A stretch of 61,489 bases of DNA, counting the filler, from Circinaria calcarea (taxonomy: Eukaryota): assembly GCA_051942165.1 (NCBI GenBank). It is 7 parts of 7 records of this genome, joined end to end, with 100 filler letters (N's around TTAATTAATTAA, not from the genome) between each part and the next. Parts side by side here need not be neighbours in the genome. Positions count along the whole stretch, not along the records: positions 35,214 to 43,906 come from JAVECS010001070.1; 6 more parts are not named here. One strand, 5' to 3'. The notes below the pieces were generated by a model. That model saw nothing but the letters and a program-made list of their open reading frames with translations, was not told the DNA's origin and searched no databases. A program made the position numbers and the translations under genes. This document shows, in pieces, positions 8,709 through 53,761 of the stretch; the stretch's first letter is position 1; the number at the start of each line of letters is the position of its first letter.

Positions 8709-8808
8709 NNNNNNNNNNNNNNNNNNNNNNNNNNNNNNNNNNNNNNNNNNNNTTAATTAATTAANNNNNNNNNNNNNNNNNNNNNNNNNNNNNNNNNNNN
8801 NNNNNNNN
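8709..8808. other. Artificial contig linker N44-TTAATTAATTAA-N44 (also at 17514-17613, 26314-26413, 35114-35213, 43907-44006, 52700-52799)
   Basis: Identical 100-nt spacer with stops in all six frames; the segments between linkers are 8705, 8700, 8700, 8693 and 8693 nt, i.e. size-sorted. Confidence 0.98.
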
Positions 8809-17513: not shown

Positions 17514-19419
17514 NNNNNNNNNNNNNNNNNNNNNNNNNNNNNNNNNNNNNNNNNNNNTTAATTAATTAANNNNNNNNNNNNNNNNNNNNNNNNNNNNNNN
17601 NNNNNNNNNNNNNGAACACTTTTGTGCTCCCGATAATAATGCCGACACGGGATTGTACATCGGAGGAGATTGGATAGCGAGGGGAAAGGTGGAGAAAAGA
17701 ACAAAGGGGAAATTCGTGCTCACAGGAGAAAGGCCGCTTGGCATAACCGATAGACCCTCAATCCTACTGTTCAACCCAGAAAGGCATATATATGAAGAAG
17801 AAGCTTCAGGGCTCCAAAGTTGGATCAGCGTACATTTGACCAATGGACTGTTCCATATTACCTCCAACCATCGCGCCTACCATGTGATTCAGTTCTCGGT
17901 GCAAGAGTCTAATTGTGTAAGCAGTACCCGATGGAAAACATGCCATCCTTGCTTCCTATTGGTAGACCAACTCCTTAGACTAATCAACGGAGTCACTTGA
18001 AGATACTAAGGTTCGGAGATGACAACCACATCACTAAGAAAGTCCTTGCCGACTTGTGTAACTTGTCTAGCGCTTTTACGGGAGTCATTCCGTGTGCATC
18101 ACGATCATTCTACTATTCAAAACATACTGCCAGCACTCACGAATCGGCACTAGTATCCGGAGAGAGCCTCCCTATATCCGAAAACAGAGATGATATTTGA
18201 CAATCCTTGCGGATTGTTATTCTAAACTAACCATCGTTCATGCAAAGCCGTGATGCGTGTGGGTATCATGAGTCCGCTTCCATCAATCCCGTTCGTTTAC
18301 TCGCTGTTTCCTCACGGTTGCCTCGGGTACGGCGTCTTCATGTTCATGCCTAGGGTGCGACATTAACAACCACCTTTCCCCGCCAACCTCTGCGCCGGCT
18401 GTTCACATTAAGCCTACTTGCAACACGAGAAAAAGGACTGTCGACCGCGATCAAAGCCGGACGAGGAAGCCGAGACGGAGGCGAACTTAAGGGATCCCGA
18501 TACAACCACTCTAGCAGCTATTGTGTTTCCTACGATATCAATGACACGTTCTTATGGAGGAGTTTGTTCATCGATACTGCAAGTACCCTTTTTTCCCCTT
18601 CCGAAGATGCAGGTATCCTAAGTTCCTCCAAAGTCCGAGGCATTGCGGTTCTAGATTACATTTCTTACTAGGACGTTAGCTAGAGTTCTGAAACTGGATA
18701 ACTCGCTATACCTACTAAGTAATACTGTTACTTATTCATGCTTACGTCATACATCTTTACAATATCCGGTTCTTTTTCCTATGCTAGTCAAGTAATTGTC
18801 AAGAGATTTCAACATTCAATATCGATAGGTAGAAGATATTTGATCAGCCCAGAATCTACTCTCTTAGCCGCCACAAGTACCTCCGCGGTACCCACGGAAA
18901 AGAACTTGCTACATACATATATTTTTCGCGGTTTTTGCAAGATTCTGACCTTTACTAACGGCTAAAGACTTAATTCCTCCATATATTCATGGAATGTACA
19001 TCCGTACTCGTCATCGGATCTCTGAAACAATCCCATGTCAGGTCTGCACTCCTGCATTTCAACCGACCACCACCCGAATTCAAGTTCATCACGTTTGTTA
19101 CATCACCGGTGATATAGGATACCCGTCCTTGACCCCGCGACTCTCAGTCCCCGTTCCCCTCGGTCAGGTATAGATCTATCTTGAACTGAATCGGATTTGG
19201 GTTTATCTCCGACAGCCAAGTGAGGAGATGTAAAGATTAGAAACCTTGCTTTGTTTCAAAGCCGGCCAACTACCTTCGTTACCGGTATCTGGGTATTCTC
19301 ATCAGGGAAAACAACGGGTATCATCTGTCGGTTTTCTATGATGATCTTATGTTGATATTTACACGCAGGCTTTGTCTGTCAGACTTTTCTTGTGCGCTCC
19401 GCTTGTGAACGAAACCCCC

Positions 19420-26222: not shown

Positions 26223-26760
26223 TGTGGTCGATGTCAATCGTATTGAAGGTGTTAGATGATACGGAAACAATTGACAATTATACACGAAAGGACTTAACGG
26301 AGTTATCGCTTTCNNNNNNNNNNNNNNNNNNNNNNNNNNNNNNNNNNNNNNNNNNNNTTAATTAATTAANNNNNNNNNNNNNNNNNNNNNNNNNNNNNNN
26401 NNNNNNNNNNNNNTGATCAATCGAAATTGGAGCGGCTCTGTATAGAGAATTAGCCAGTGTACCACTCTCACATGGTCTAGTAATACCCTGAGAAGCGTTC
26501 CGTGAGTAGCGACTGGATGAGCACGTTTTGGTAATCTAGGAGAAGCATTGTCGCACTTTTCGATCATGATATGGCAGTGAGATTCGTGTGGAAGAGAGGG
26601 ACCATATAACTGGAGTCCCAAGCTCTGCCTGCCCGCTTCCTGTTCGATGTAAGGCTGCGACATACTACGATAGGGCTCCGCAAACGGCGCTAGTGGTGGG
26701 CTGTCGGCGCTGGCTTCCCCAAAAAGTTTCGGTGCTTCTGAACAGACTGCCCATTGAAAG

Positions 26761-34565: not shown

Positions 34566-35213
34566 GTCTGTTGGGCATTGATTTGGGCATTGATATCTGC
34601 ATGCAAGACTTGACGCCCGGAATGGGGGTTTGGGAAAGGATAGATAGGTATCTATCTGATTTTTAAGCGGCATATGACCGGGGGCGTTTTTTATGTACGG
34701 GAAATCGAAACGTTCAGTCAAAATCATGGTCGGTGTGGAGCCTTAAACCATCAATCCCGGTTCCCGGGAATCAGGACTACGTAAACCAAATGACCGGAGT
34801 TGGAGAAGTTTTAAAATCCTATGACCAATCGAAAACCTCCCCCCCCCCCTTTTCTCGCCCTCCTTTTTTCAGACTCTTTCCCAGCTCTAGAATATTCTTA
34901 TCCCTTTCCCCCTTTCCCTTTCATCTTAAGAAAAACTTTTCTCCGCCGTAAGTAACGCTTTACAGATTACGGGAAATCTTTACCCTGAATCCTTTGGTAA
35001 GGAAGCGTAAGCGTGAAAAAGGGAAGGAAAGGGAAGGGGATGGAAGGGAGAGAAACCCGCTGTTCTTAGGTCGAGGGAAGGGGTTGAGGGAAGGGGATAG
35101 AGGGGAAGAGATGNNNNNNNNNNNNNNNNNNNNNNNNNNNNNNNNNNNNNNNNNNNNTTAATTAATTAANNNNNNNNNNNNNNNNNNNNNNNNNNNNNNN
35201 NNNNNNNNNNNNN

Positions 35214-36457
35214 CTTCCTTCCCACCCCCCGCGCCCCCCAAGACCAAGAATTCCCCAATTCTTGGTCTTGGGGGGAGCGTGGGGTGGGAAGGAAGGCAAA
35301 AAGGGAGACAAGAGGATTTGTAAAAGGGGGATTTGTGTTTGGTGGGCAAAGTAAGCCAAAGATAGGGTAGAAAGGAACGAAACGTAAGTGGAGAACCAAT
35401 GGAGGGAGAAACAATACCTTGAAACCCCAGCTCTGATGATGTAAATCGTGAAACTTGGCCCCGTTGGCATTGAGGGAGCGGAAGGGATCCCAGGGAAACA
35501 CGTAGCCGCAGTGGTCGCTGATGGTCTTGATTGTCGCCAACGAGCCGAAAATCATGCTCTGGCGGACCGAGAATCCAGCCAGGGCGTTCCCCATCATGAA
35601 GCTAAGGATATCGAGGAAGAGACTTTCGAGCCAGTGGGCGTATACCGCCCCATATGCATAGGGAACATAAAGGCGATGATGTTGAGCGTGGACGATACCT
35701 GCGGATCGGGGGTTCAGTAATGTACCCTGTCCCAAGGAGATTCCGTGTGGAGGGAGGGCACCGGCGGCGAAACGAACAAGGGGAAAAACTTACGGTAGAG
35801 CGTTTTGTTCACATGGCAAAGTCGATGGGTAAAGTATATCCAAGTATCCACCACCGCTAAAGCGATGAAGAACTGCACGGCGGGAACAAGGAAAGTTTCG
35901 ACAAGGTTCGCCACGAAAAGTTCGGCCGAGGTAAAGCCCAGAGGTTGGGACGAGTTCAATCCGGCAAACGACGCAGGCCCACCGGCGAGGAATTGGGCAA
36001 GCGTTGCACTTTTGCTAGACGTGGCAAAGGCAAGGCCTTTTGCGTCGATTCCGACAGAAGCCAGTATCCAAGGGACCAAAGTGCGGGCGTGCCTCACTCG
36101 TCCTGCCCATCGGTGTACATCACAGCTCTTGTTGGCCACCATCTCCGGCCCGGCACCGTAACTTAAAAGCAATCCGATAGAAATTTGCATCAGGTGATAG
36201 CGAGCGACGCCTTGAAAACATTCGAGCCGGGACACATGATTGCGTTTGAGGTCCTCCTCCGTCGGATGGATGCGGTATTGCGTGAACAGCTGCTGCCTGT
36301 CGAGCCAGTAGAAAAACCCGCAGGCGACAATATACACGACGGTGGGCAAGACAGTAGCGAGAACGGCATCGGATATTCCAGATATCAGTGCTGGTTGGGG
36401 GATCGGTGTGCAGGACGGGGTTGATGAAGCATTGAAATCGTATGTTGCATTCAACAT
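35214..36457 (-). CDS. Fatty acid hydroxylase superfamily, sphinganine C4-hydroxylase (Sur2)-like and diverged; intron 35699-35793; 3' end missing or unclear at the contig edge
   Basis: QYRIHPTEEDLKRNHVSR; His boxes THRLCH, HAQHHRLYVPYAYGA and HDLHHQSWG; DHCGY.FPWDP. Confidence 0.85.
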
Positions 36458-37543
36458 GATGGGATATCAAAATGGAGCTGACGGGGAGCAATGATGGACG
36501 ACGGTCGATTGAGGAACAGTACAGCTTCGAACAGCTTTCAGTCGAAATTCAAGTTAAAGGGATACACTCGATGACAAGCGCTGCGAATTGGGGCCGCAAG
36601 CCATGCATTCTCCGACATCATCCATGTCCAGAAGGACCTCACTTGATTCGCGTATCGAGTAGACAGAGGAGAGCGATCTACTGCACTCTGTATTTCCCCA
36701 CATGCGGCTGGGAGGAGATCAATTCGGCGGAATTCGGTCATGCAGACTCGCGGATTAGAGATTTTGCTGCCGGGACTAAAAGTACCTGGGCGACAAGCTA
36801 AAAATGGAGAAACATACCTTAGGTAACGATGAAATGAAATCAATGTCAATACGGAATCAATCAAGAAGCCACTCTCGACTAATAATTGTTGCCCCCTACA
36901 CTTGTATTCGGGCTGGTCCACATGGCAGGGAGCGTCGAGTTGATGCAAGGTGACACTTACTGGCTCTTCTCTCGCTCAACTAGCACAGTCGCACCCCAAT
37001 TGGCTTAAGATGCGAAGCTTTTCGTTTTCATATTCTCGTATTTTATTTTAATCCTACGCAGGCTCGCTGACCGAGTGATAGAATAAATACGAGAAGCAAA
37101 ATCCTGGTGCCTGTCCTTACGATACGAAAACTGCTAAGTATTTTGTTAAGGGTGTTGTCCGCGGCTGTTCTGCTGGCAAGAAAAGTGTGCCTGCTCTGTT
37201 AGAATGTGCAATCACGGCACAGTAGAAATGCATTGGTATCAATACGAATCGGTGGTACTCCATAAATTTATGGAGCGGAAGTAACAAGGTGGGCATAGCC
37301 CCTATATGCCATAATTGTAATGACAGTAGTGTTTGCGCAAACAGCAGAAGTACTAAACCCCCATGAACCCCTGAATGCTCTAAGCCGTGTGTGCGCTAAG
37401 CCATAGTAGTTTGAATCGAACAAGCAAGGGGCTGAATCGTGACACTACCCGCGCTCTATTCTCCTGCAGCTTTCCCCCTTTTCCATCTCCCGGTTTGGTT
37501 CTCCCATTGAAACCCGAGATAGATATCGAGTGAATCCGATTTG

Positions 37544-38092
37544 CTAGTGGAAATAGTCGAGGTAGGAGAAGGCTTCGATAAGGCTGTCTGGAGAGCCAGC
37601 TTTGGCTTTTTCAATGGCAGCATTGGTAACTGCTTTAGGAAGAACTGCAGTGCCGTCCTCAGATCGCTTGTGAAAGTAATCGAGGTAGGAGAAGGCTTCG
37701 ATAAGGCTGTCTGGAGAGCCGGCTTTAGCTTTTTCAATGGCAGCATTGGTAACTGCTTTAGGAAGAATTGCAGTGCCGTCCTCAGATCGCTTGTGAAAGT
37801 AGTCGAGGTAGGAGAAGGCTTCGATAAGGCTGTCTGGAGAGCCGGCTTTGGCTTTTTCAATGGCAGCATTGGTAACTGCTTTAGGAAGAACTGCAGTGCC
37901 GTCCTCAGATCGTTTATGAAAGTAATCGAGGTAAGAGAAGGCTTCGATAAGGCTGTCTGGAGAGCCGGCTTTGGCTTTTGCAATAGCAGTAGATGTGACT
38001 GCCTCAGGAAGCTTTGGAGATTCTGCTTTAGGAGTTGGAGCACCGACCGCCAGGGCAACGGAGAAGGCGACGATGATAAGAGAGCCTTTCAT
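37544..38092 (-). CDS. Secreted Kex2-processed repeat protein: candidate fungal RiPP (dikaritin) precursor with 4 cores ending SLIEAFSYLDYFH
   Basis: Signal peptide MKGSLIIVAFSVALAVG; 41-aa (123-bp) repeat KRSEDGTAVLPKAVTNAAIEKAKAGSPDSLIEAFSYLDYFH; differences between core copies are synonymous in this frame; adjacent DUF3328 genes. Confidence 0.9.
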   Translation of the reverse strand: MKGSLIIVAFSVALAVGAPTPKAESPKLPEAVTSTAIAKAKAGSPDSLIEAFSYLDYFHKRSEDGTAVLPKAVTNAAIEKAKAGSPDSLIEAFSYLDYFHKRSEDGTAILPKAVTNAAIEKAKAGSPDSLIEAFSYLDYFHKRSEDGTAVLPKAVTNAAIEKAKAGSPDSLIEAFSYLDYFH

Positions 38093-38538
38093 GTTTGCGA
38101 GTTCGAAAATAGATTTGGCGAAGGAAGTTCAAAGGTAGGCTCAAATGAAGTTCAAAGATAGATTCAAATGAAGGAAGTAGATCAAAGCCGACTGGAGAAG
38201 GTGGATGGCCAGGAAATCATACGGGCTATAGCCCATATTTATACTTGATCTGCTGCAATATGGGCGCTTCTATTCATGCCGGTATATTGACTCGAACCTG
38301 GGCATCTTAGAATTGCTTCCCTACCTCCGCGGCCTGTAGTGCGAGCCATTAGTCCTGTTGCCACTATTCCGTGTATCTGACACGACAATCCAGCTTTTGG
38401 ACTGAATTGCACTTTGGGAGTTGATTGTAACCATCAGTAGAAAAAGGGCAAATGCGGTTACTGACGGAATGTTAGAGGCGGTGTCCTCTTTGGACATGGC
38501 TATCCTTCGAATTATAAAGACATGACAGGGACAAGGCC

Positions 38539-38835
38539 TCCAATAGTGCAGCCGGTGCAATGCAGTGCAGTGAACTGCACTGTTTTGGCAGTTCAGCTCC
38601 GTACTGCACTAGCAGGGCAAGGGGGCTTGAACTGCATTGGCAGTGTTTACTGATAGTGCAGTTAATCTCGCTAAACGGCTGAGCGTAGGGTTGTACCATT
38701 AGTGTAAAAATCATCTGCACTAGCAGTGTAGTGCAGTACACTACCATTGAACTGTATTATTAGTGCATTGCGGGCTTGGCAGTGCAGACTGCACCGTGAA
38801 CTGCCAATGCGCATTGCACCGGCTGCGCTATTCGA
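38539..38835. mobile_element. MITE-like inverted-repeat element rich in TGCA/TGCAGT motifs
   Basis: tccaatagtgcagccggtgcaatgc (38539-38563) versus gcattgcaccggctgcgctattcga (38811-38835), 2 mismatches; no clear TSD. Confidence 0.6.
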
Positions 38836-39108
38836 GGATTGGGGCTGAATGTAATCATCATGAAAACATGACAGGGATGCAGTTAGCTGAAAATACTTAC
38901 ACATCCACTGTTTCGACGGTGTACCCGAGCAGTTACGTACATTATGAAAACGTGCAGCGGAAAGAAGTACAATCTCGAATCCCTCTCCGCTGTTATATAA
39001 TCCACCTTCGGGGATAGCTATACGCCCACGTTTTCTCTCCGTCTATAAACTGTACTCTTCATTCTTACTCACTCACTCAAAGAGATTCTGAGACAAAACT
39101 TTCTAACG

Positions 39109-40130
39109 ATGTTGCCCGCCGGGGAAGTCTCTCATAGCACCAAGTATGAAGAATTAGGGTCAGAGGAGAAAGAGGAGAATGGGTTTCTTCTTCCAACCAC
39201 TGAAAAAGCTTATGCGAAGAGAAGGATGAATTCGAGAAGCCATGTTTGGATATTATATCTGACAAATGCGGTGACTCTGATCGCTGTTGTGATTCTGGCA
39301 TTAGTTGCCAAGGAAGCTCGTAGGGATCCAAGTCTCGTAGGTGTTTACTGTGAGACTATTTTCGGAGGTTGCAGTAAGAACATTTGCTAATAGAACATAC
39401 CAGCACCGGCAAGATCTGCTGTCGAATATGTGGTACACCGGTTTGATTCCGCATTTGAGAACAAAACTGAGTATATGGGCGATCCTACTCCGGAGATCGA
39501 TGCTCGATGGTTAGACTTGGCAGCTTGTAGGAAGTTCTGGCTTCTCGCCGTGGCTGATGTAGAATCCTGACTGTTAAGACAGACGGAGTGTCCAAAATTT
39601 CTGATTCAGAAGCCGCCCAGCTTTTCGAGCCTACCATGTCTAATCTCGACAACGAGTCGGAGCATTGGGTTACCCTCGACGTGTTCCATCAGTTGCACTG
39701 CCTCTACAACATCCGAAAATATTTCCACCAGGACTATTACCCATTCCGCCGAGAATATCATGCAAACGGCACCGAAAACAAAGATACTATACCATACGAG
39801 CACTGGGGTTAGTACAGCTTACTCCCTACCTCTTCAACCTTCCCTGACAATTTCGGTCTTCCAGACCACTGTATAGATTCCATTCGGCAAAGCCTTATGT
39901 GCTCGGCTGACATCACTCCCATCTCATTCCATATTGACAAACGAGGGTCGGGTATCTTTCCCAAGTTACAGGCTACTCACGTGTGTCGCAATTTCGACAA
40001 AATCACAGAGTGGGCCAAAGAGCACTTTGCTGGGAATAATGTGAGGTTTCAGTTCAAAGAAGGTGATGCGTTATTAGATTACTATAGGAGTAATGAAGCA
40101 GATATTCGTCAGAACGGTGGAAGTAAGTAG
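39109..40130 (+). CDS. DUF3328/UstYa-family oxidase 1; introns at about 39350-39402, 39528-39582 and 39808-39864
   Basis: N-terminal TM helix, YSPARSAVEY, MGDPTPEIDARW, LDVFHQLHCLYNIRK, HWDHCIDSIRQSLMCSADITP, HVCRNFDKITEWA; two HxxHC motifs. Confidence 0.92.
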
Positions 40131-40287
40131 GTAGAGGCGAGAAGGGTATGGGCTCGGACATTTTCGCCAAGGAAATTAAGTATTCTCAGAAATACGCAGA
40201 TTTCAGCGTATCTAAATTCTAAACTCTGTACTACGTATATCCAAGCACTGCATCCAGTTATCTGAGGTTCGAATAGAAATCTCTATA

Positions 40288-40430
40288 TCCCTTCGACTGT
40301 TGCTCAGGCAGGATGGACCGTGCGTTTTTTGAATACAAGGTTAGGATTGGCCAGTTAGGTTGGCACGAACCAGAAGTTGGTCCGTTCAAAAAACGCACGG
40401 TCCATCCTGCCTGAGCAACAGTCGAAGGGA
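40288..40430. mobile_element. 143-bp MITE with perfect 46-bp TIRs flanked by TA (Tc1/mariner-type target site)
   Basis: tcccttcgactgttgctcaggcaggatggaccgtgcgttttttgaa (40288-40333) is the exact reverse complement of 40385-40430; TA at 40286-40287 and 40431-40432. Confidence 0.85.
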
Positions 40431-40938
40431 TAGCTTAATATTTAACCTGAGAACCGAATTCCCCGTCGTTGTTCACCTCCTCTCGGTAAGAAAACTTAGC
40501 TTCGTTGCGACCCAAGGATATGTCGAGACTCTTACGACAGACTATGCTTGCAGGTCCTCACCGACTCGTTGGCCGCACCGTCCTTACTAAGTTGAAAAAT
40601 ATTAGCAGTTCAGCGAGCAGCGGACGCCTATTTTACTTGACTACTATCCCATGGCATGGCGGCTTGGCCAGGAACGCTTACAGTCGGATGGCGTTACATT
40701 GAAAAGTCGTTCCCTGACGGTCTCAGAAACGTGGCATCGCGGCTACTTGGATCTGAAAGTTTGGGGCTGAGGATGCGAAAAGCTTATTCGGGGTATATCC
40801 GAGGCTAATCTTCAGCTACAGTTCCTTATCTCTCAGTAGGGAGGAAGCCATTCGCTCAACCCGAATGCCCGTCTGCTCTTCGTTTATTGATTTCCTTTCC
40901 TCGATTCTTCTTGGTCGTTTTATTATACGTTAATCAAC

Positions 40939-41931
40939 ATGAAATTCTTATCCAAGGTCTACATACCTGTCCCATTGTCCGAACAGGATTCCAATGAATC
41001 TAGCTCTTCACTTTCCGAAGGGCCACACGGTGATGAGGAACGGGCAGAGGAGTTGAAACGTTGGAAAAAGATCCGCCTTTCGGCAATCACCCTCCTGCAC
41101 TTCGCAACTCTCCTCTTCGCATTATCCGTGGTCGTATTCGTCGCAGCAATCATCAGGAAACCCAGCGACTCGGAATGCACACGACAGGTTTCGACATACT
41201 GTAAGCGAGAATGCCACTGCTTGTATTGGAGATGGCGGTATCTCAGTCAACTAACGAATGGCAGCACCTGCTATTTCTGCCGTCGAATATGAAGACTACG
41301 ACTTCGAGAACTCTTTTGCACATCCAACGAAGTATCGAGGACCACCGACAGCCACACTCGAAAGTGAGTGGAATAGACTTTGGCAATGTAGGTGACCAGC
41401 GTCTCCGGTGAATGCTCGATTTTGATCAAGTGTAGATGGTTATGTCAATATACCAGAGAACGATCTCGTTTTCTTGAATAGATCAAACTCGAAGAAAGAG
41501 TGGCAGCGTCTTCCTCCCGAGCATGGTGGAGGATACGCGGGTCTGATAGACGTGTTCCATCAGCTTCATTGTTTGGTACCAAGCCACCCCTTCCACTCTT
41601 GTTTGGCTTTCTTCAGTACTTTACTGACTATAATTCGCAGAATTATATCCGGCAATACACCTGGGGTGACTTCTATGACCGACACGGCATGAAAAATGAT
41701 CTCATATCAACGCCTGTTGGAAATAGAATGCATGTCGATCACTGTATCGAGACACTACGGCTAGTGCTAATGTGCCATTCTGACACGACGCCGGTTTTGC
41801 TGGAAGTAGATCTGATGGCGGCAAAGGGCCGTCGTGCTGACTTTAATGCACACCATAAATGTCGAAATTTTACTAAGTTGCAGGAATGGATGGATAAGAA
41901 CGTCAAGGTCGAAATGTACCATCATGAATAA
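40939..41931 (+). CDS. DUF3328/UstYa-family oxidase 2; introns at about 41201-41264, 41387-41435 and 41576-41640
   Basis: N-terminal TM helix, YSPAISAVEY, YRGPPT..ESEW, IDVFHQLHCLNYIRQ, HVDHCIETLRLVLMCHSDTTP, HKCRNFTKLQEW. Confidence 0.93.
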
Positions 41932-42279
41932 AATGGTACAGGATATAGGCATAAAGGTACAAAGATGAATCACTTTTACAGAATTTTGAGGCCTAGGGGT
42001 CAACGCCAAATTATTTATGTTATGGCGCTTTGGCGCCGGGCAATCCCCTAGGGTTATCTAGAAGTGGGGTTGGTTTGATAACTACCTCTTAAGTTGTTGC
42101 TCAGGGGGACAGAACCGTGCACGCCGTATTAATAAGGGGGTTTAGTTTCCCCGCACAAATTACTACTAAAATAAGCATCTCTTCTCCACCGATTGGCCAG
42201 AATTAAAGTTCTATTAGTGCCCGAAACACCCTGTAGCGCGCACAGTTCGTGCTGCCTAAGTGGGCAGCTTAAGGGATAT

Positions 42280-42738
42280 GAAGGAGTTCGTATTTATTAA
42301 GCGATAAGCGATAGCTTGCCCCGAATATTTACTATAGGCGAGAAGTTATCGCTTAAAGATACAGGACTCCGGCCTAGTATTCGGGCATGGGACCACCAGC
42401 ATTGGAGGAGTCCCACACAAATCTAGACTTTAATATTTAGCGAATAGTTACGTTCAGGGTTGCAATTTTCTTCAGCCGCGTGGCAGTGAACTTGCGCTTA
42501 TACCGTATGGTAACGCGAAGCTAAATCGTAACAGCATAAATTGCTAGGGGCGTTTGGCTGCCCTAACGTCTAATAACGCGGTTATCTGTACAGCTCAAAA
42601 TTAAATTAATTGGTAGGGTTAACATTGACTTTATTAGCCTATATAATTAGATTTGGCATATGTATATTCCATATGCAAGGAGGTCGTCTGCCCGCGATAT
42701 TTGGCGAGAACTTATCGCTTAAAAATACGAACTCCTTC
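42280..42738. mobile_element. Degenerate TIR element of about 460 bp
   Basis: gaaggagttcgtatttattaagcgataag versus the reverse complement of cttatcgcttaaaaatacgaactccttc (1 indel); AT-rich interior with subterminal repeats. Confidence 0.6.
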
Positions 42739-42739
42739 G

Positions 42740-42985
42740 GAGCTGAAAGTTGAAAGCCGCCTTGCAGGTCGGATAACTTCATATCAGCTAATTCAAGCTT
42801 AAAGTTAAAAATCGCCGTGCAGGTCAGCTTTCATGCAGTGGGTACGGGACGACTTCGTGTCAGCGAGCTGAATCAAGCTGAAGTTAAAGTCGCCGTATAG
42901 ATCGGCTTGCGTACAGTGGGCACCGGACGACTTCATATCAGCTAATTCGAGCTGAAAGATCACATCGCCGTGCAGCTCAGCCCTC
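42740..42985. repeat. Degenerate tandem repeat, about 3 units of 75-78 bp
   Basis: Recurring acgacttcatatcagctaattc(a/g)agct.aaag....tcgccgtgcag units. Confidence 0.65.
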
Positions 42986-43193
42986 AGCACCGTTTCGCGT
43001 GACTCCTCCGCCCCCCGGTCTTCGCACCGGGTTTAGTCTCGTAAGAAGAAAATGGTGGTCTTTGCCATATTCACAACTAAGAGTTCAACCCATATATTTG
43101 TTCTCCTCCGCTCAGGCCACCCCAAATCCTTATTTTCCAGGCAAAGCCACTTCACTCCCAAAACCTCTCTGCATTCTCGCCATCAACGATAGC

Positions 43194-43388
43194 ATGCATC
43201 TCTTCCTTTCCGCCATCTTGCTCTCGTGCATTACTTGCGCCTTCTCCTTTCCTCTCTCGACTCGCCAGCAGCTCGAGAGCTCAGACACTCCCACCGCCCT
43301 CTCTCGCAAGTTCGTTTCCGCCTATCAGGATGAAATCGACGCCGCTGATCCAATCGCTGTGCTTGGAGATCGTTCCGCTCCACTCTAG
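43194..43388 (+). CDS. Small secreted peptide (64 aa)
   Basis: MHLFLSAILLSCITCAFSFP signal peptide followed by ..LSRKFVSAYQDEIDAADPIAVLGDRSAPL; pyrimidine-rich 5' leader. Confidence 0.55.
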   Translation: MHLFLSAILLSCITCAFSFPLSTRQQLESSDTPTALSRKFVSAYQDEIDAADPIAVLGDRSAPL

Positions 43389-44006
43389 TCACCGGGTGCA
43401 AAGGCAACTAACTGCCGGTTGAACTTGGGGGCATTCGCGAAGGAAAGGACACAGGATATGGACGTTACTTAGAAGGGATAGGGCCTCAGAGAGACTGTAT
43501 AACATTGCTATACTATTCTTTGCCCAGAAAGCGGTTAGCTGCATGTTATTCTGAGCCACAGCGAATATATACTTGGGCGACGTTCGAGAGATTAGCCACT
43601 GCACCGGCTGCACTATTGGAAGCTCTGGAAGTAGGAAACGAAAGAAGAAGAGTCAATTCGGGCGCGTTTTCCCTTGCCTCACCCTCACCCTCACCCTCAC
43701 CCTCACCCCATCCATCCGCTCCCTTCCCGGTCTCGAAACCCAGATTCGTCAGTTAGCCTCTCGCCCGCGGTGATAGGTATAGAACGTTCCGAGAACGTTT
43801 CGATAGGTACGACGACAGTCGGCCGGAGAGCAGGGTGCGGAAGGAGAATATGAACTGCGCGAAGTGTAAATATCCCCCAAATCTGCCCCCCATCCAATCC
43901 CTCCTCNNNNNNNNNNNNNNNNNNNNNNNNNNNNNNNNNNNNNNNNNNNNTTAATTAATTAANNNNNNNNNNNNNNNNNNNNNNNNNNNNNNNNNNNNNN
44001 NNNNNN

Positions 44007-45604
44007 TTCACATCGGGAATAGCATAATATTGGAGATCGGAGGCTGTTTGCAAATCCTGGTTTCGCTCGGCTTCTTCAAGCTTGACTCTCAACGAATCTA
44101 GTTTCATCTTGGCCTCTTGAATTTCTTTACTCCGCTCTTTCTCACTCTCGTATTTTTCTCGCAAAGGCTTGAGCTCTTCCTGGACATTAGCTGCTTCGGC
44201 CTTCGCTTGTGATAGACGTGCTTGAGAAGCTTCATCTTTTTCACGCTCGAGTGCGTGGATCTCAATCTGTAGTTGACGTAATTTACGTTCCAGGTTGTCG
44301 ATAACTTCTGGTTGCGACTCCCGAGTGACTCTGACTGCCGCGGCAGCTTCGTCAATCAAATCTACCGCCGAGTCTGGCAACCGACGTGCAGTGAGGTATC
44401 GAGCAGCCAATGTAGCAGCAGCTACGATAGCACCGTCCAAAATGTTAACACCATGATGTACCTCGTATTTCTCTTTTAAGCCACGTAGAATGGAGATAGT
44501 TTCCGGTATCGTTGGTTCCTGAACCAGTACCTGTTGAAACCTTCGCTCAAAAGCTTGATCCTTTTCAATGTACTTCCGATACTCTGCCAGCGTGGTAGCG
44601 CCAATGCAATGTAGCTGACCTCTGGCGAGCATAGGCTTCAAGAGATTGGCTGCGTCCATGCCACCCTCCCCGCTCGATCCAGCGCCCATTAGGAGATGTA
44701 TTTCATCGACAAATAGAACAATCATCTCCTTCGAATCCTCGATTTCCTTCAGTACTCCCTTCATCCGCTCTTCAAATTCCCCGCGGTACTTGCTCCCGGC
44801 AACCAAAGATCCGACGTCAAGCGAGAGTAGTTTACATGCCGCCAGATTGGCTGGAACATCCGCATTGACTATACGTGAAGCTAACCCTTCAACAACCGTG
44901 GTTTTACCAACACCAGGCTCGCCGATCAACACGGGGTTGTTCTTTGTCCGCCGCGACAATATACGTATCACTCTTCGAATCTCTTCTTCTCGGCCAATCA
45001 CGGGATCGATTTTTCCCTCTCGTGCCAATGAGGTCATATCAATGGTAAACTTCTTGAGATTCTCGTTCTCTTGCTCGGAGTCCGCCGTCTTCGAGTCAAC
45101 CCTCTTGGTTCCCCGAATCTGTTGGATGGCGGTATCAATGAGTTTTGTATTGGGGATGTTTGCATCCGCTAAGCATTTTTGGATCGATGAATCCTGCGCC
45201 AGGGAAGTGATGAGATGGTCGATCGCTATGTAGCTGTCTTTCTGCGTCTTTTGCAAATCGTTCGCCGCGCGTAGGATCTTGGAAAACTGAGGAGATACCG
45301 AGACGTGTTCTGGTGGAGGATCTTGACTGGGCAATCGGACCAGAGCTTTCTTCATAGCCCGATCGAGTAGTTGTGGATCTCCATGAGCGCGTTCAATAAC
45401 CTGTCTGAACAAGGGCGCTGAGCTGGCGGCATGTGACGCGTTGACTTTCTGTTGCTGGTCCTTGGATTCATCGATAGGGGGATCGAGGAGAGAGACTGCG
45501 AGATGGAGGGGGAGAATCTGAGAGTGCGAATATTGCTGTGCAAGATCGTGAGCATCGGCTAGGGCTTTCTGTGCCCTGTCGGTAAACTGCATGGTCGACG
45601 CCAT
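44007..45604 (-). CDS. HSP104: Heat-shock protein Hsp104/Hsp98 (ClpB AAA+ disaggregase), 3'-truncated at the contig end
   Basis: IDPVIGREEEIRR, RRTKNNPVLIGEPGVGKT, LFVDEIH, DAANLLKPMLARG, GATTLAEYRKYIEKDQAFERRF, RRLPDSAVDL. Confidence 0.97.
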
Positions 45605-52418: not shown

Positions 52419-53761
52419 AAGGACATGTTACGCTGCCAAATCTAGGTGCTACAAGAACAAAACTTACATTACACCGAAAAACATAGAGTCCTGGATAACA
52501 GATGCTACACAACAGCATGGGCGGCACTCCGGCCAATGCGTAGGGCTTTTGGTTAGTTCTGGTATTATGGTTTCGATGATAGATATGGGATTAGAGCTCA
52601 GAGGGTTCACAATGCATCCGAGGTGGAAAGGATGAGCTCTCCCTAGGCGTTGGGTTGAGTTACTGACCCTCAAAAGGTTTTGGCATCCGCCATTTCGGTN
52701 NNNNNNNNNNNNNNNNNNNNNNNNNNNNNNNNNNNNNNNNNNNTTAATTAATTAANNNNNNNNNNNNNNNNNNNNNNNNNNNNNNNNNNNNNNNNNNNNC
52801 TAGTCATGGGAGTGTAAGAGGGATGCGGGTAGTATAAAGGGAGTGGAGGAGGTTACAGGACTTGTGTCAAGCAACATGCATGTGTGGGTGGCATGCATAT
52901 ATTGCGATTTAGGCAATAGCTAAATTAATTATGCAGGGAAAAATGCTCTTATAAGATGTGTCGGAGGTGTTAAGCATGGACCTGGCGTAATATGTAAATC
53001 ACACGTGACTCGGTAAGCCCTATTCGAACAACTTGCGAGTATATAATTCCAAGGGCTCGGGTATAACAGGTAACATGCGCTGGAAAACTCATATCTCGTA
53101 GAGTTTGATTGTGGGAATGCATATATACGAGCTTGGACCGCCATGAATATCGAGTTGTGACGGATCGGAGGTGTTTTGAACACCACCGGGAGAATCTAAA
53201 GCTGCAGTAATGGTGCAAGCGAGATAGCTCTCTTTCGGCAGTTCAATGTCTTGTATCATAGAAGCCCTGGGTTCGTAGCTCTCGGGTGGTTTCTCGTCCA
53301 TGCTTTGTTGTTTCCGAACGAAGGTCTTGGCTTATATCTCTTGCCAAAATGGTACTGATCAGATTGCTTGAATGGTGGACCCGTGTTGTACGGTATAGTC
53401 TGGTGCTCCTCGCCATCAGCATAATTCACTTAAATACCGCCGTTTCAGCCGACATACTATAAAGACACATGTCAGCTTTACTTCGGATCATGAACACATT
53501 TTGGAATACGATCTGAGATTTCGTCAAGCTTTCTTACCTTCCACAAGGTCTGCCCAAGTCTCGTAGGTTTCGCTCAAGGTTCCACCATTATAACAGATTG
53601 GACGTATTGATATTGCGAACCACAATTCGTATTATTAGTTCGAAGCCGCAAGCTTCTCAAGAACCGAAGGATGGAACTGTTCCGCAGGACTCCCCACAGC
53701 TTCTCTTAGTGGCGGTATGTATTGCAGTTGGTAGTATTACAAGGCCAGTACCACGTGCTTA

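Follow-up and report, generated by a model that had tools for sequence, protein, structure and literature searches.

A candidate minimal DUF3328-dependent (dikaritin-type) RiPP locus in the lichen-forming ascomycete Circinaria calcarea

Asperipin-2a of Aspergillus flavus is a bicyclic peptide closed by Tyr ether links, and its four-gene cluster is described as having one UstYa homologue and no tyrosinase (PMC6514808). The ustiloxin precursor UstA is processed by Kex2 to 13-14-mers, with cyclisation by UstYa and UstYb together with UstQ. The epichloecyclins of Epichloe festucae undergo GigB-dependent cyclisation via Tyr (PMC10540207). CctR, a DUF3328 copper hydroxylase of the cyclochlorotine pathway, is reported to be a membrane-anchored, lumen-facing, disulfide-linked homodimer that binds two copper ions through HxxHC(x)nHxxHC and needs O2 and electrons; the cyclase AprY reportedly behaves like it (PMC12435403). 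Here we compare with these systems a locus of Circinaria calcarea, a lichen-forming fungus (Lecanoromycetes, order Pertusariales), in which the gene for a Kex2-processed repeat protein (KEP) stands beside two genes for UstYa (DUF3328) proteins. The locus lies on one contig within the window, the whole stretch of 61,489 bases that was analysed, and is probably a minimal DUF3328-dependent (dikaritin-type) locus for a peptide that is made on ribosomes and altered after translation (RiPP).

Like the asperipin-2a cluster (aprA, aprY, aprT and aprR), the locus combines a Kex2-repeat precursor with a UstYa homologue, lacks a tyrosinase and a methyltransferase on its contig, and has an aromatic core with several Tyr residues (PMC6514808). 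The two differ in that asperipin-2a has one UstYa and the core FYYTGY, whereas this locus has two and a core ending in FSYLDYFH within 41-residue units; no transporter or reductase was seen on the 8.7-kb contig, and AprA and AprY were compared by description only. With the ustiloxin cluster (UstA, UstYa, UstYb and UstQ) it shares two mutually homologous DUF3328 proteins beside the precursor, and UstA, like the window precursor, is described with a signal peptide, KR-bounded repeats and a Tyr-containing core flanked by acidic residues (PMC6514808). However, UstA carries 16 repeats of 13-14 residues with the core YAIG, against four units of 39-41 residues here, and the ustiloxin cluster also includes a tyrosinase, a methyltransferase, flavin-dependent monooxygenases and more, none of which is on the window contig.

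The epichloecyclin cluster (gigA, gigB, gigC and kexB) likewise belongs to a symbiotic fungus and has a DUF3328 cyclase and a conserved Tyr; its precursor is described as four long imperfect repeats (27 residues) made of a short core and a non-core 'follower', with conserved tails noted (PMC10540207). There the core comes after the Kex2 site, whereas the conserved part of the window precursor comes before it; additionally, the window contig has no SET methyltransferase or dedicated kexin, and the cores (INFKIPYT type) look unrelated. CctR and the window UstYa proteins are alike in their disordered N-terminus, their single membrane helix, a lumenal domain that carries HxxHC(x)nHxxHC, and additional cysteines that are conserved (PMC12435403). 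The substrate of CctR is, by contrast, the product of a non-ribosomal peptide synthetase (NRPS), which it hydroxylates, and for both window proteins copper binding and a dimeric state are predicted from their sequences by analogy.

The precursor gene is placed as follows.

37544-38092, minus strand: precursor gene for a Kex2-processed repeat protein, 182 residues, from open reading frame (ORF) and repeat analysis

Its product begins with a hydrophobic stretch (best 12-residue Kyte-Doolittle value 3.05, residues 5-16) followed by small residues (AVG-AP), a signal-peptide-like N-terminus from which targeting to the endoplasmic reticulum (ER) may be predicted heuristically. Four units of 39-41 residues each make up the repeat, seen in the DNA as a 123-nt period with 3.6 copies and 95% matches (TRF). 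There are exactly three dibasic sites, all KR, following units 1, 2 and 3, and unit 4 stops directly at the stop codon; therefore, all four units share the same ending. The last 18 residues, AGSPDSLIEAFSYLDYFH, are identical in all four, and the differences between unit 1 and the others are confined to its first half. Units 2-4 show 2-5 nt differences in synonymous codons versus 0-1 in non-synonymous codons, an excess that would fit selection on the peptide. Umemura 2020 defines a KEP by a signal peptide and at least three tandem repeats of at least eight residues between dibasic sites, with no repeat longer than 100 residues (PMC7329392), and with its four repeats of 39-41 residues the precursor belongs in this group.

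A preliminary description of this DNA had proposed a secreted precursor with four identical cores, and the 182-residue ORF with its hydrophobic N-terminus and four units of common ending bears this out. The core it named, FSYLDYFH, holds at one end: the C-terminal end of the released peptide (...YFH) is fixed because of the KR sites and the stop codon. The other boundary was a guess, and FSYLDYFH is one possible boundary only, because no site marks the N-terminal end of the core. These last eight residues of the unit comprise two Tyr, two Phe and one His.

The two oxidase genes were also correctly described as tandem, divergent from the precursor and bearing two HxxHC motifs each. The PF11807 profile search that had been proposed as a check matched 4 of 125 ORF pieces, all within 39558-41928 (E 5e-12, 2e-19, 1e-7 and 9e-21), and these pieces belong to the two genes.

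39109-40130, plus strand: UstYa-1 (DUF3328), 284 residues, four exons, PF11807 on two exon pieces
39109-39349, 39404-39526, 39583-39807, 39865-40130, plus strand: UstYa-1 exons (splice model)
UstYa-1 protein: membrane helix at about residues 48-66, HQLHC at 157, HWDHC at 195
40939-41931, plus strand: UstYa-2 (DUF3328), 271 residues, four exons, PF11807
40939-41200, 41265-41387, 41436-41575, 41641-41931, plus strand: UstYa-2 exons (splice model)
UstYa-2 protein: membrane helix at about residues 54-72, HQLHC at 170, HVDHC at 206

The splice models were drawn from three-frame translations, the DNA and tblastn with homologues, with which they agree, and all six introns are 48-65 nt long with GT..AG ends. 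UstYa-1 is separated from the divergent precursor by 1,016 bp, and UstYa-2 starts 808 bp after UstYa-1. Both proteins have a polar N-terminal stretch of about 50 residues and then a single segment of 19 residues that is strongly hydrophobic. Each has a YSPA motif where the first two exons join, and two HxxHC motifs spaced 36-38 residues apart; the HWDHC motif of UstYa-1 straddles an exon junction. Additional cysteines after the second HxxHC do not vary across 23 aligned relatives. Over 212 residues, UstYa-1 and UstYa-2 share 34% identity.

The precursor and the two UstYa genes show the architecture that defines a dikaritin-type locus, and the dikaritin-type reading, already made in the preliminary description, is well supported by it. 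Every processing and chemical step that follows is inferred, as is expression. The 182-residue precursor would enter the ER via its signal peptide, and Golgi Kex2 would cleave after the three KR sites to yield four peptides of 39-41 residues, from which a Kex1-type carboxypeptidase would strip K and R so that each ends in ...SYLDYFH. By oxidising a C-H bond, one or both UstYa proteins would then link that position to the side chain of a Tyr, producing one or two macrocycles located in the aromatic C-terminal stretch. The enzymes would work as single-pass, lumen-facing, disulfide-linked dimers, each with a binuclear copper site formed by HxxHC(x)nHxxHC and a requirement for O2 and electrons, and other peptidases would trim the N-terminal spacer. 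One or two macrocycles are plausible given two Tyr, two Phe, one His and two oxidases.

Loci of this kind are common in fungi. The Umemura survey reports 7,878 KEPs in 1,461 fungal genomes, of which 1,758 (22%) have DUF3328 genes nearby, at a mean of 1.7 per precursor and most commonly at the next gene; DUF3328 genes are strongly enriched beside KEP genes, 2,560 of the 7,878 KEPs are without a homologue, and Tyr is present in 65.6% of DUF3328-linked repeats (PMC7329392). Because of these counts, a unique Tyr-rich repeat with two UstYa genes is a typical case, and the locus is a previously undescribed but ordinary member of a fungal RiPP class that already numbers thousands. The earlier claim of a new cluster stands for the repeat and core, for which neither searches nor papers yielded relatives, and is tempered by a class already thousands strong (PMC7329392).

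The repeat and core have no detectable relative in protein, metagenome and literature searches. A word-indexed search of 5.8 billion proteins (8,000 candidates scored) returned nothing for the precursor at E<=0.01, not even itself, and a metagenome scan gave 592 pattern matches with 0 confirmed relatives, in keeping with the novelty first suggested. The exact sequence is absent from a 15-billion-protein collection in which the hydroxylase of the same contig is present; thus, the precursor gene is unannotated in the public record. Searched exhaustively with phmmer, 1.84 billion cluster representatives gave 6 matches at E<=1e-3 and 0 at E<=1e-10, all of them 506-4,487 residues long, and the two inspected are unrelated long repeat proteins. 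Small genes left unannotated in fungal genomes escape these precursor searches. Neither the core nor its substrings appear in the papers searched, one unrelated antibody sequence excepted, within a scope that stopped short of bioRxiv and PDF supplements; motif look-ups in the Umemura 2020 supplement gave zero matches, which carry no weight as it lists accession numbers and not sequences.

A survey of RiPPs in 111 lichen genomes found UstYa-like genes with HXXHC to be widespread; two conserved clans were examined for precursors, and for these it states that there are 'no conserved repeated regions' (PMC12048977). The genus Circinaria does not appear in its main text or four supplement files, and among the papers listed in our literature search on lichen RiPP clusters only this survey was judged to address them, the other papers being assessed by title and the opening of the abstract. 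Every further KEP-UstYa pair may lead to a new cyclic peptide scaffold. Culturing lichen fungi is difficult and their peptide chemistry is under-explored, and an explicit precursor from one of them is a concrete target for heterologous expression.

Besides the precursor, the Pfam and ORF scan of the contig yielded only one other candidate substrate gene.

43194-43388, plus strand: second precursor-like ORF (orf64), 64 residues, with a hydrophobic N-terminus and the C-terminal motif SAYQDEIDAADPIAVLG

This ORF lies 1,262 bp downstream of UstYa-2 and ends in ...KFVSAYQDEIDAADPIAVLGDRSAPL. It was missing from the text of the preliminary description, even though the end coordinate given there, 43388, touches it. 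By tblastn its tail matched the C-terminal ends of precursors in metagenome loci that hold relatives of UstYa-2 (L005/L006, E 1e-5; L014, E 3e-4) and, more weakly, L002/L003, L012 and the repeat units of L015. We define a tail-motif precursor family by the consensus Y..D.[VI].AAD..AVLG, placed close to the stop codon, and an adjoining gene of the UstYa-2 clade. The motif lies no more than three residues from the stop codon in 4 of 5 metagenome loci. Smith-Waterman comparison of orf64 with five metagenome tails gave z values of 5.8-12.1, and for each tail 0 of 300 shuffles scored as high. A profile built from these five tails, orf64 excluded, was run against 11,298 six-frame ORFs (30 loci and the whole window); it recovered the training loci, their two duplicates, and orf64 at E 3.1e-8, with the next match at E 6.7. 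No Pfam family covers orf64 or the tail-motif proteins, the motif strings are in no paper searched, orf64 is absent from the public protein collection, and its top score in the protein atlas was 0.84, a level that provides leads only. We read orf64 as probably a second member of a precursor family that accompanies the UstYa-2 clade; it may be a second substrate or what remains of a recognition tail.

The last exon of UstYa-2 has 34 relatives among 35 candidates, the best 78% identical; the named ones (49-59%) are from Hirsutella, Microdochium, Aspergillus and Cadophora. Scanning metagenomes with an alignment of these relatives gave 30 JGI loci at 39-67% identity over the best segment (27 of 30 at 42-57%), several of which are the same sequence from different samples. 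KEP-type genes with very different repeats lie close to the UstYa gene in L005/L006, L014, L015 and L023. Precursors in the related loci stand 1-2.3 kb from the UstYa gene and are mostly divergent from it, as in the window, and the remaining neighbours differ from locus to locus (Zn2Cys6 regulators, an ABC transporter, an alpha/beta hydrolase or a second UstYa). In the tail-motif loci (L002/L003, L005/L006, L012, L014 and L015) the last exon is 51-57% identical to that of UstYa-2. Their KEPs share the C-terminal motif of orf64, but carry it at the end of or inside a repeat precursor, whereas in the window it sits on a separate small ORF, and their repeat cores are unrelated to that of the window precursor.

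The KEPs of L005/L006 (6494-7225, minus strand) and L014 (2770-3219, minus strand) have hydrophobic, Tyr-free KR-bounded repeats (for example TTNLVLTNVLAHDEK and EDPVIAIVKPDNVG) and finish with a tail motif that occurs once and contains Tyr. Therefore, if UstYa acts on these repeats, no Tyr ether can form within them. In L023 (4022-4441, minus strand), a 139-residue KEP built from six ATPEWFDDAYPSK...KR-type repeats adjoins an ABC transporter and a UstYa gene (50% identical to the UstYa-2 last exon), and has an aromatic and acidic core and no tail motif. Homology of the window precursor unit to the L015 unit and tail motif, as suggested by an alignment by eye, is not claimed, as shuffles did not support it: the precursor scored z 3.5 against L015 (4 of 300 as high), 0.1 against L014, -1.3 against L012, -0.6 against L002 and 1.0 against orf64, and its z of 5.8 against L005 is distrusted since both are repeat proteins.

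Several points weigh against the dikaritin-type reading. The signal peptides of the precursor and orf64 were assessed by a hydrophobicity heuristic only, the 41-residue repeat unit is long beside the 13-14-mers of UstA, and its N-terminal processing site is undefined. The Pfam scan found no transporter, peptidase, tyrosinase, methyltransferase or regulator on the 8.7-kb contig, which falls outside the five-gene dikaritin definition of PMC12048977 (tyrosinase, methyltransferase, transporter or peptidase); the contig is short, however, and the asperipin-2a cluster has neither a tyrosinase nor a methyltransferase (PMC6514808). Adjacency to DUF3328 is not proof, because these enzymes act in NRPS and polyketide pathways too (PMC12048977), and the four-repeat precursor, which is without the tail motif, had no match in the profile search of 11,298 ORFs. 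The repeat protein could be an unmodified secreted peptide precursor, a signal or pheromone-like KEP, while the UstYa genes act elsewhere: of the published KEPs, 78% lack a neighbouring DUF3328 gene, and linear peptides are the product of many (PMC7329392). We consider this improbable, given that the precursor immediately adjoins a divergent UstYa gene, that its conserved end holds two Tyr, two Phe and one His, that pheromone-type KEPs almost never have DUF3328 neighbours (PMC7329392), and that orf64 is the only other candidate substrate on the contig. A fungal alpha-pheromone precursor in particular was rejected; the ORF has no curated-threshold Pfam match and no pheromone (MF_alpha) family among its sub-threshold matches, and a DUF3328 gene adjoins.

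Because the precursor lacks the tail motif found in the precursors of the closest UstYa-2 relatives, UstYa-2 may instead act on orf64. The contig would then hold two precursor-oxidase pairs, UstYa-1 serving the four-repeat precursor and UstYa-2 serving orf64, with the C-terminal motif as its core, an alternative that we entertain tentatively. The motif adjoins a UstYa-2-like gene in five distinct metagenome loci and the window, a Tyr and a V or I four residues later are conserved in it, and in L015 all seven KR-bounded units contain it, which is what a core should show. A tree of 25 last-exon sequences (L002_7507, L022_2616, L027_3324 and L030 were dropped as too short or containing stops) has UstYa-1 as a long, distant branch and places every UstYa-2-like gene from a tail-bearing locus within a single 16-row group (support 94/97, under the star threshold of the tool); among loci with usable flanks the motif is present in 6 of 7 inside the group versus 0 of 6 outside. 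However, this group was picked after seeing the data, and the tree label test for tail-motif loci did not reach significance (6 changes; 124 of 500 shuffles gave a count as low), since the motif cannot be scored on short contigs. In L005 and L014, where the repeats are Tyr-free and the motif occurs once at the very end, a follower or recognition tail also fits better than a core; additionally, orf64 is short and its expression putative. Whether as a docking element (follower) or as a conserved second core, the motif might define an undescribed RiPP precursor family that co-evolves with one UstYa clade and is here split onto a 64-residue gene, a proposal that we regard as doubtful. If it were true, two products would come from the locus, including a new Tyr-cross-linked peptide with SYLDYFH as its ending, and its repeat-core dikaritin-type precursor would be the first to be described from a lichenised fungus. 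The occurrence of the motif in six independent loci could help explain how UstYa proteins recognise peptide substrates.

Returning to the dikaritin-type locus, the contig carries one further gene, which the preliminary description had placed in the cluster.

35214-36457, minus strand: fatty-acid-hydroxylase-family (Sur2-like) gene, 5' part, PF04116 at E 2.5e-11
35794-36457 (exon 1) and 35418-35698 (exon 2), minus strand: hydroxylase exons, the last exon being lost at the contig end

The family (PF04116, with the three histidine boxes HRLCH, HAQHH and HDLHH in the translation) and position given for it were right, and 'Sur2-like di-iron hydroxylase' is a fair label at superfamily level, with a sphingolipid C4-hydroxylase orthologue as a possible narrower identity; its membership of the cluster was not supported. 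As the tailoring enzyme of a fuller pathway it would have in its favour its position on the precursor's strand, 1,086 bp downstream of that gene, and a family that hydroxylates C-H bonds. We judge this very unlikely. Such enzymes act on membrane lipids, and 115 of 929 candidates are relatives of the gene at E<=1e-5. Dozens of named lichen fungi, which make up most of the named relatives, have orthologues at about 50-76% identity, and Leotiomycetes have them at about 46-48%, whereas the precursor is unique. Additionally, tblastn against the 30 loci holding UstYa-2 relatives returned nothing at E<=1e-3, and PF04116 was found in 0 of 147 ORFs (>=110 residues) from six long loci of this set. Because it is conserved across Lecanoromycetes and absent from the 30 related UstYa loci, the hydroxylase is probably a mere neighbour and not a tailoring enzyme, with adjacency its sole link to the pathway. 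We know of no fatty-acid-hydroxylase-family enzyme in any characterised dikaritin pathway.

Full-length relatives of the hydroxylase extend beyond ...HHQSWGFK by another exon, which is missing here because the contig ends. The two-exon model equals the public partial protein 'MAG: hypothetical protein Q9187_004976, partial [Circinaria calcarea]' residue for residue. Solved structures for the family gave no match below E 0.068, the protein atlas returned for the hydroxylase exon only clusters labelled 'hypothetical, Ascomycota', and a 31%-identical paralogue occurs in another lichen fungus. A second copy, P0042, is 98% identical, is annotated with its first intron read through and lies on another contig (3,313 bp) of the same public assembly, which suggests that two haplotypes or strains are present in the assembly. 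At the left contig end (35214-35295), a near-perfect hairpin with 39-nt arms, 95% complementary, and a 4-nt loop is probably an assembly artefact by which the hydroxylase gene is cut short.

The gene-free parts of the locus hold several repeats.

38093-39108: intergenic region shared by the divergent precursor and UstYa-1 genes, 1,016 bp

The Pfam scan found no Pfam-bearing ORF in this region, which is presumed to be a bidirectional promoter. A 27-nt element occurs at 38536-38563, 38811-38837 and 43597-43623, in inverted orientation with 93% complementarity, and thus both in this region and downstream of orf64; it is perhaps a dispersed small repeat, or else a regulatory site in common. The 808-bp gap between the UstYa genes contains a perfect inverted repeat of 48 nt around a spacer of 51 nt (40286-40432), possibly a miniature transposon or a terminator with a strong hairpin. 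The gene-free stretch between UstYa-2 and orf64 has a 78-nt tandem duplication (42786-42942; 2 copies with 78% matches) along with further short direct repeats.

The window consists of seven separate pieces of 8,690-8,708 bp, sorted by decreasing length and joined by six 100-base linkers of the form N44-TTAATTAATTAA-N44 (8709-8808, 17514-17613, 26314-26413, 35114-35213, 43907-44006 and 52700-52799); therefore, genes in the other pieces are not genomic neighbours of the locus. The locus is entirely within piece five, the contig at 35214-43906 (8,693 bp), which ends on both sides at linkers as first described, with its right end at 43906 and not at 43388. In the Pfam scan the other pieces showed a WDR3/Utp12 protein, EMC6, a nuclease, a kinase and a membrane transporter, and a long ORF at 43955-45604 looks, as judged by eye only, like an Hsp104-like chaperone.

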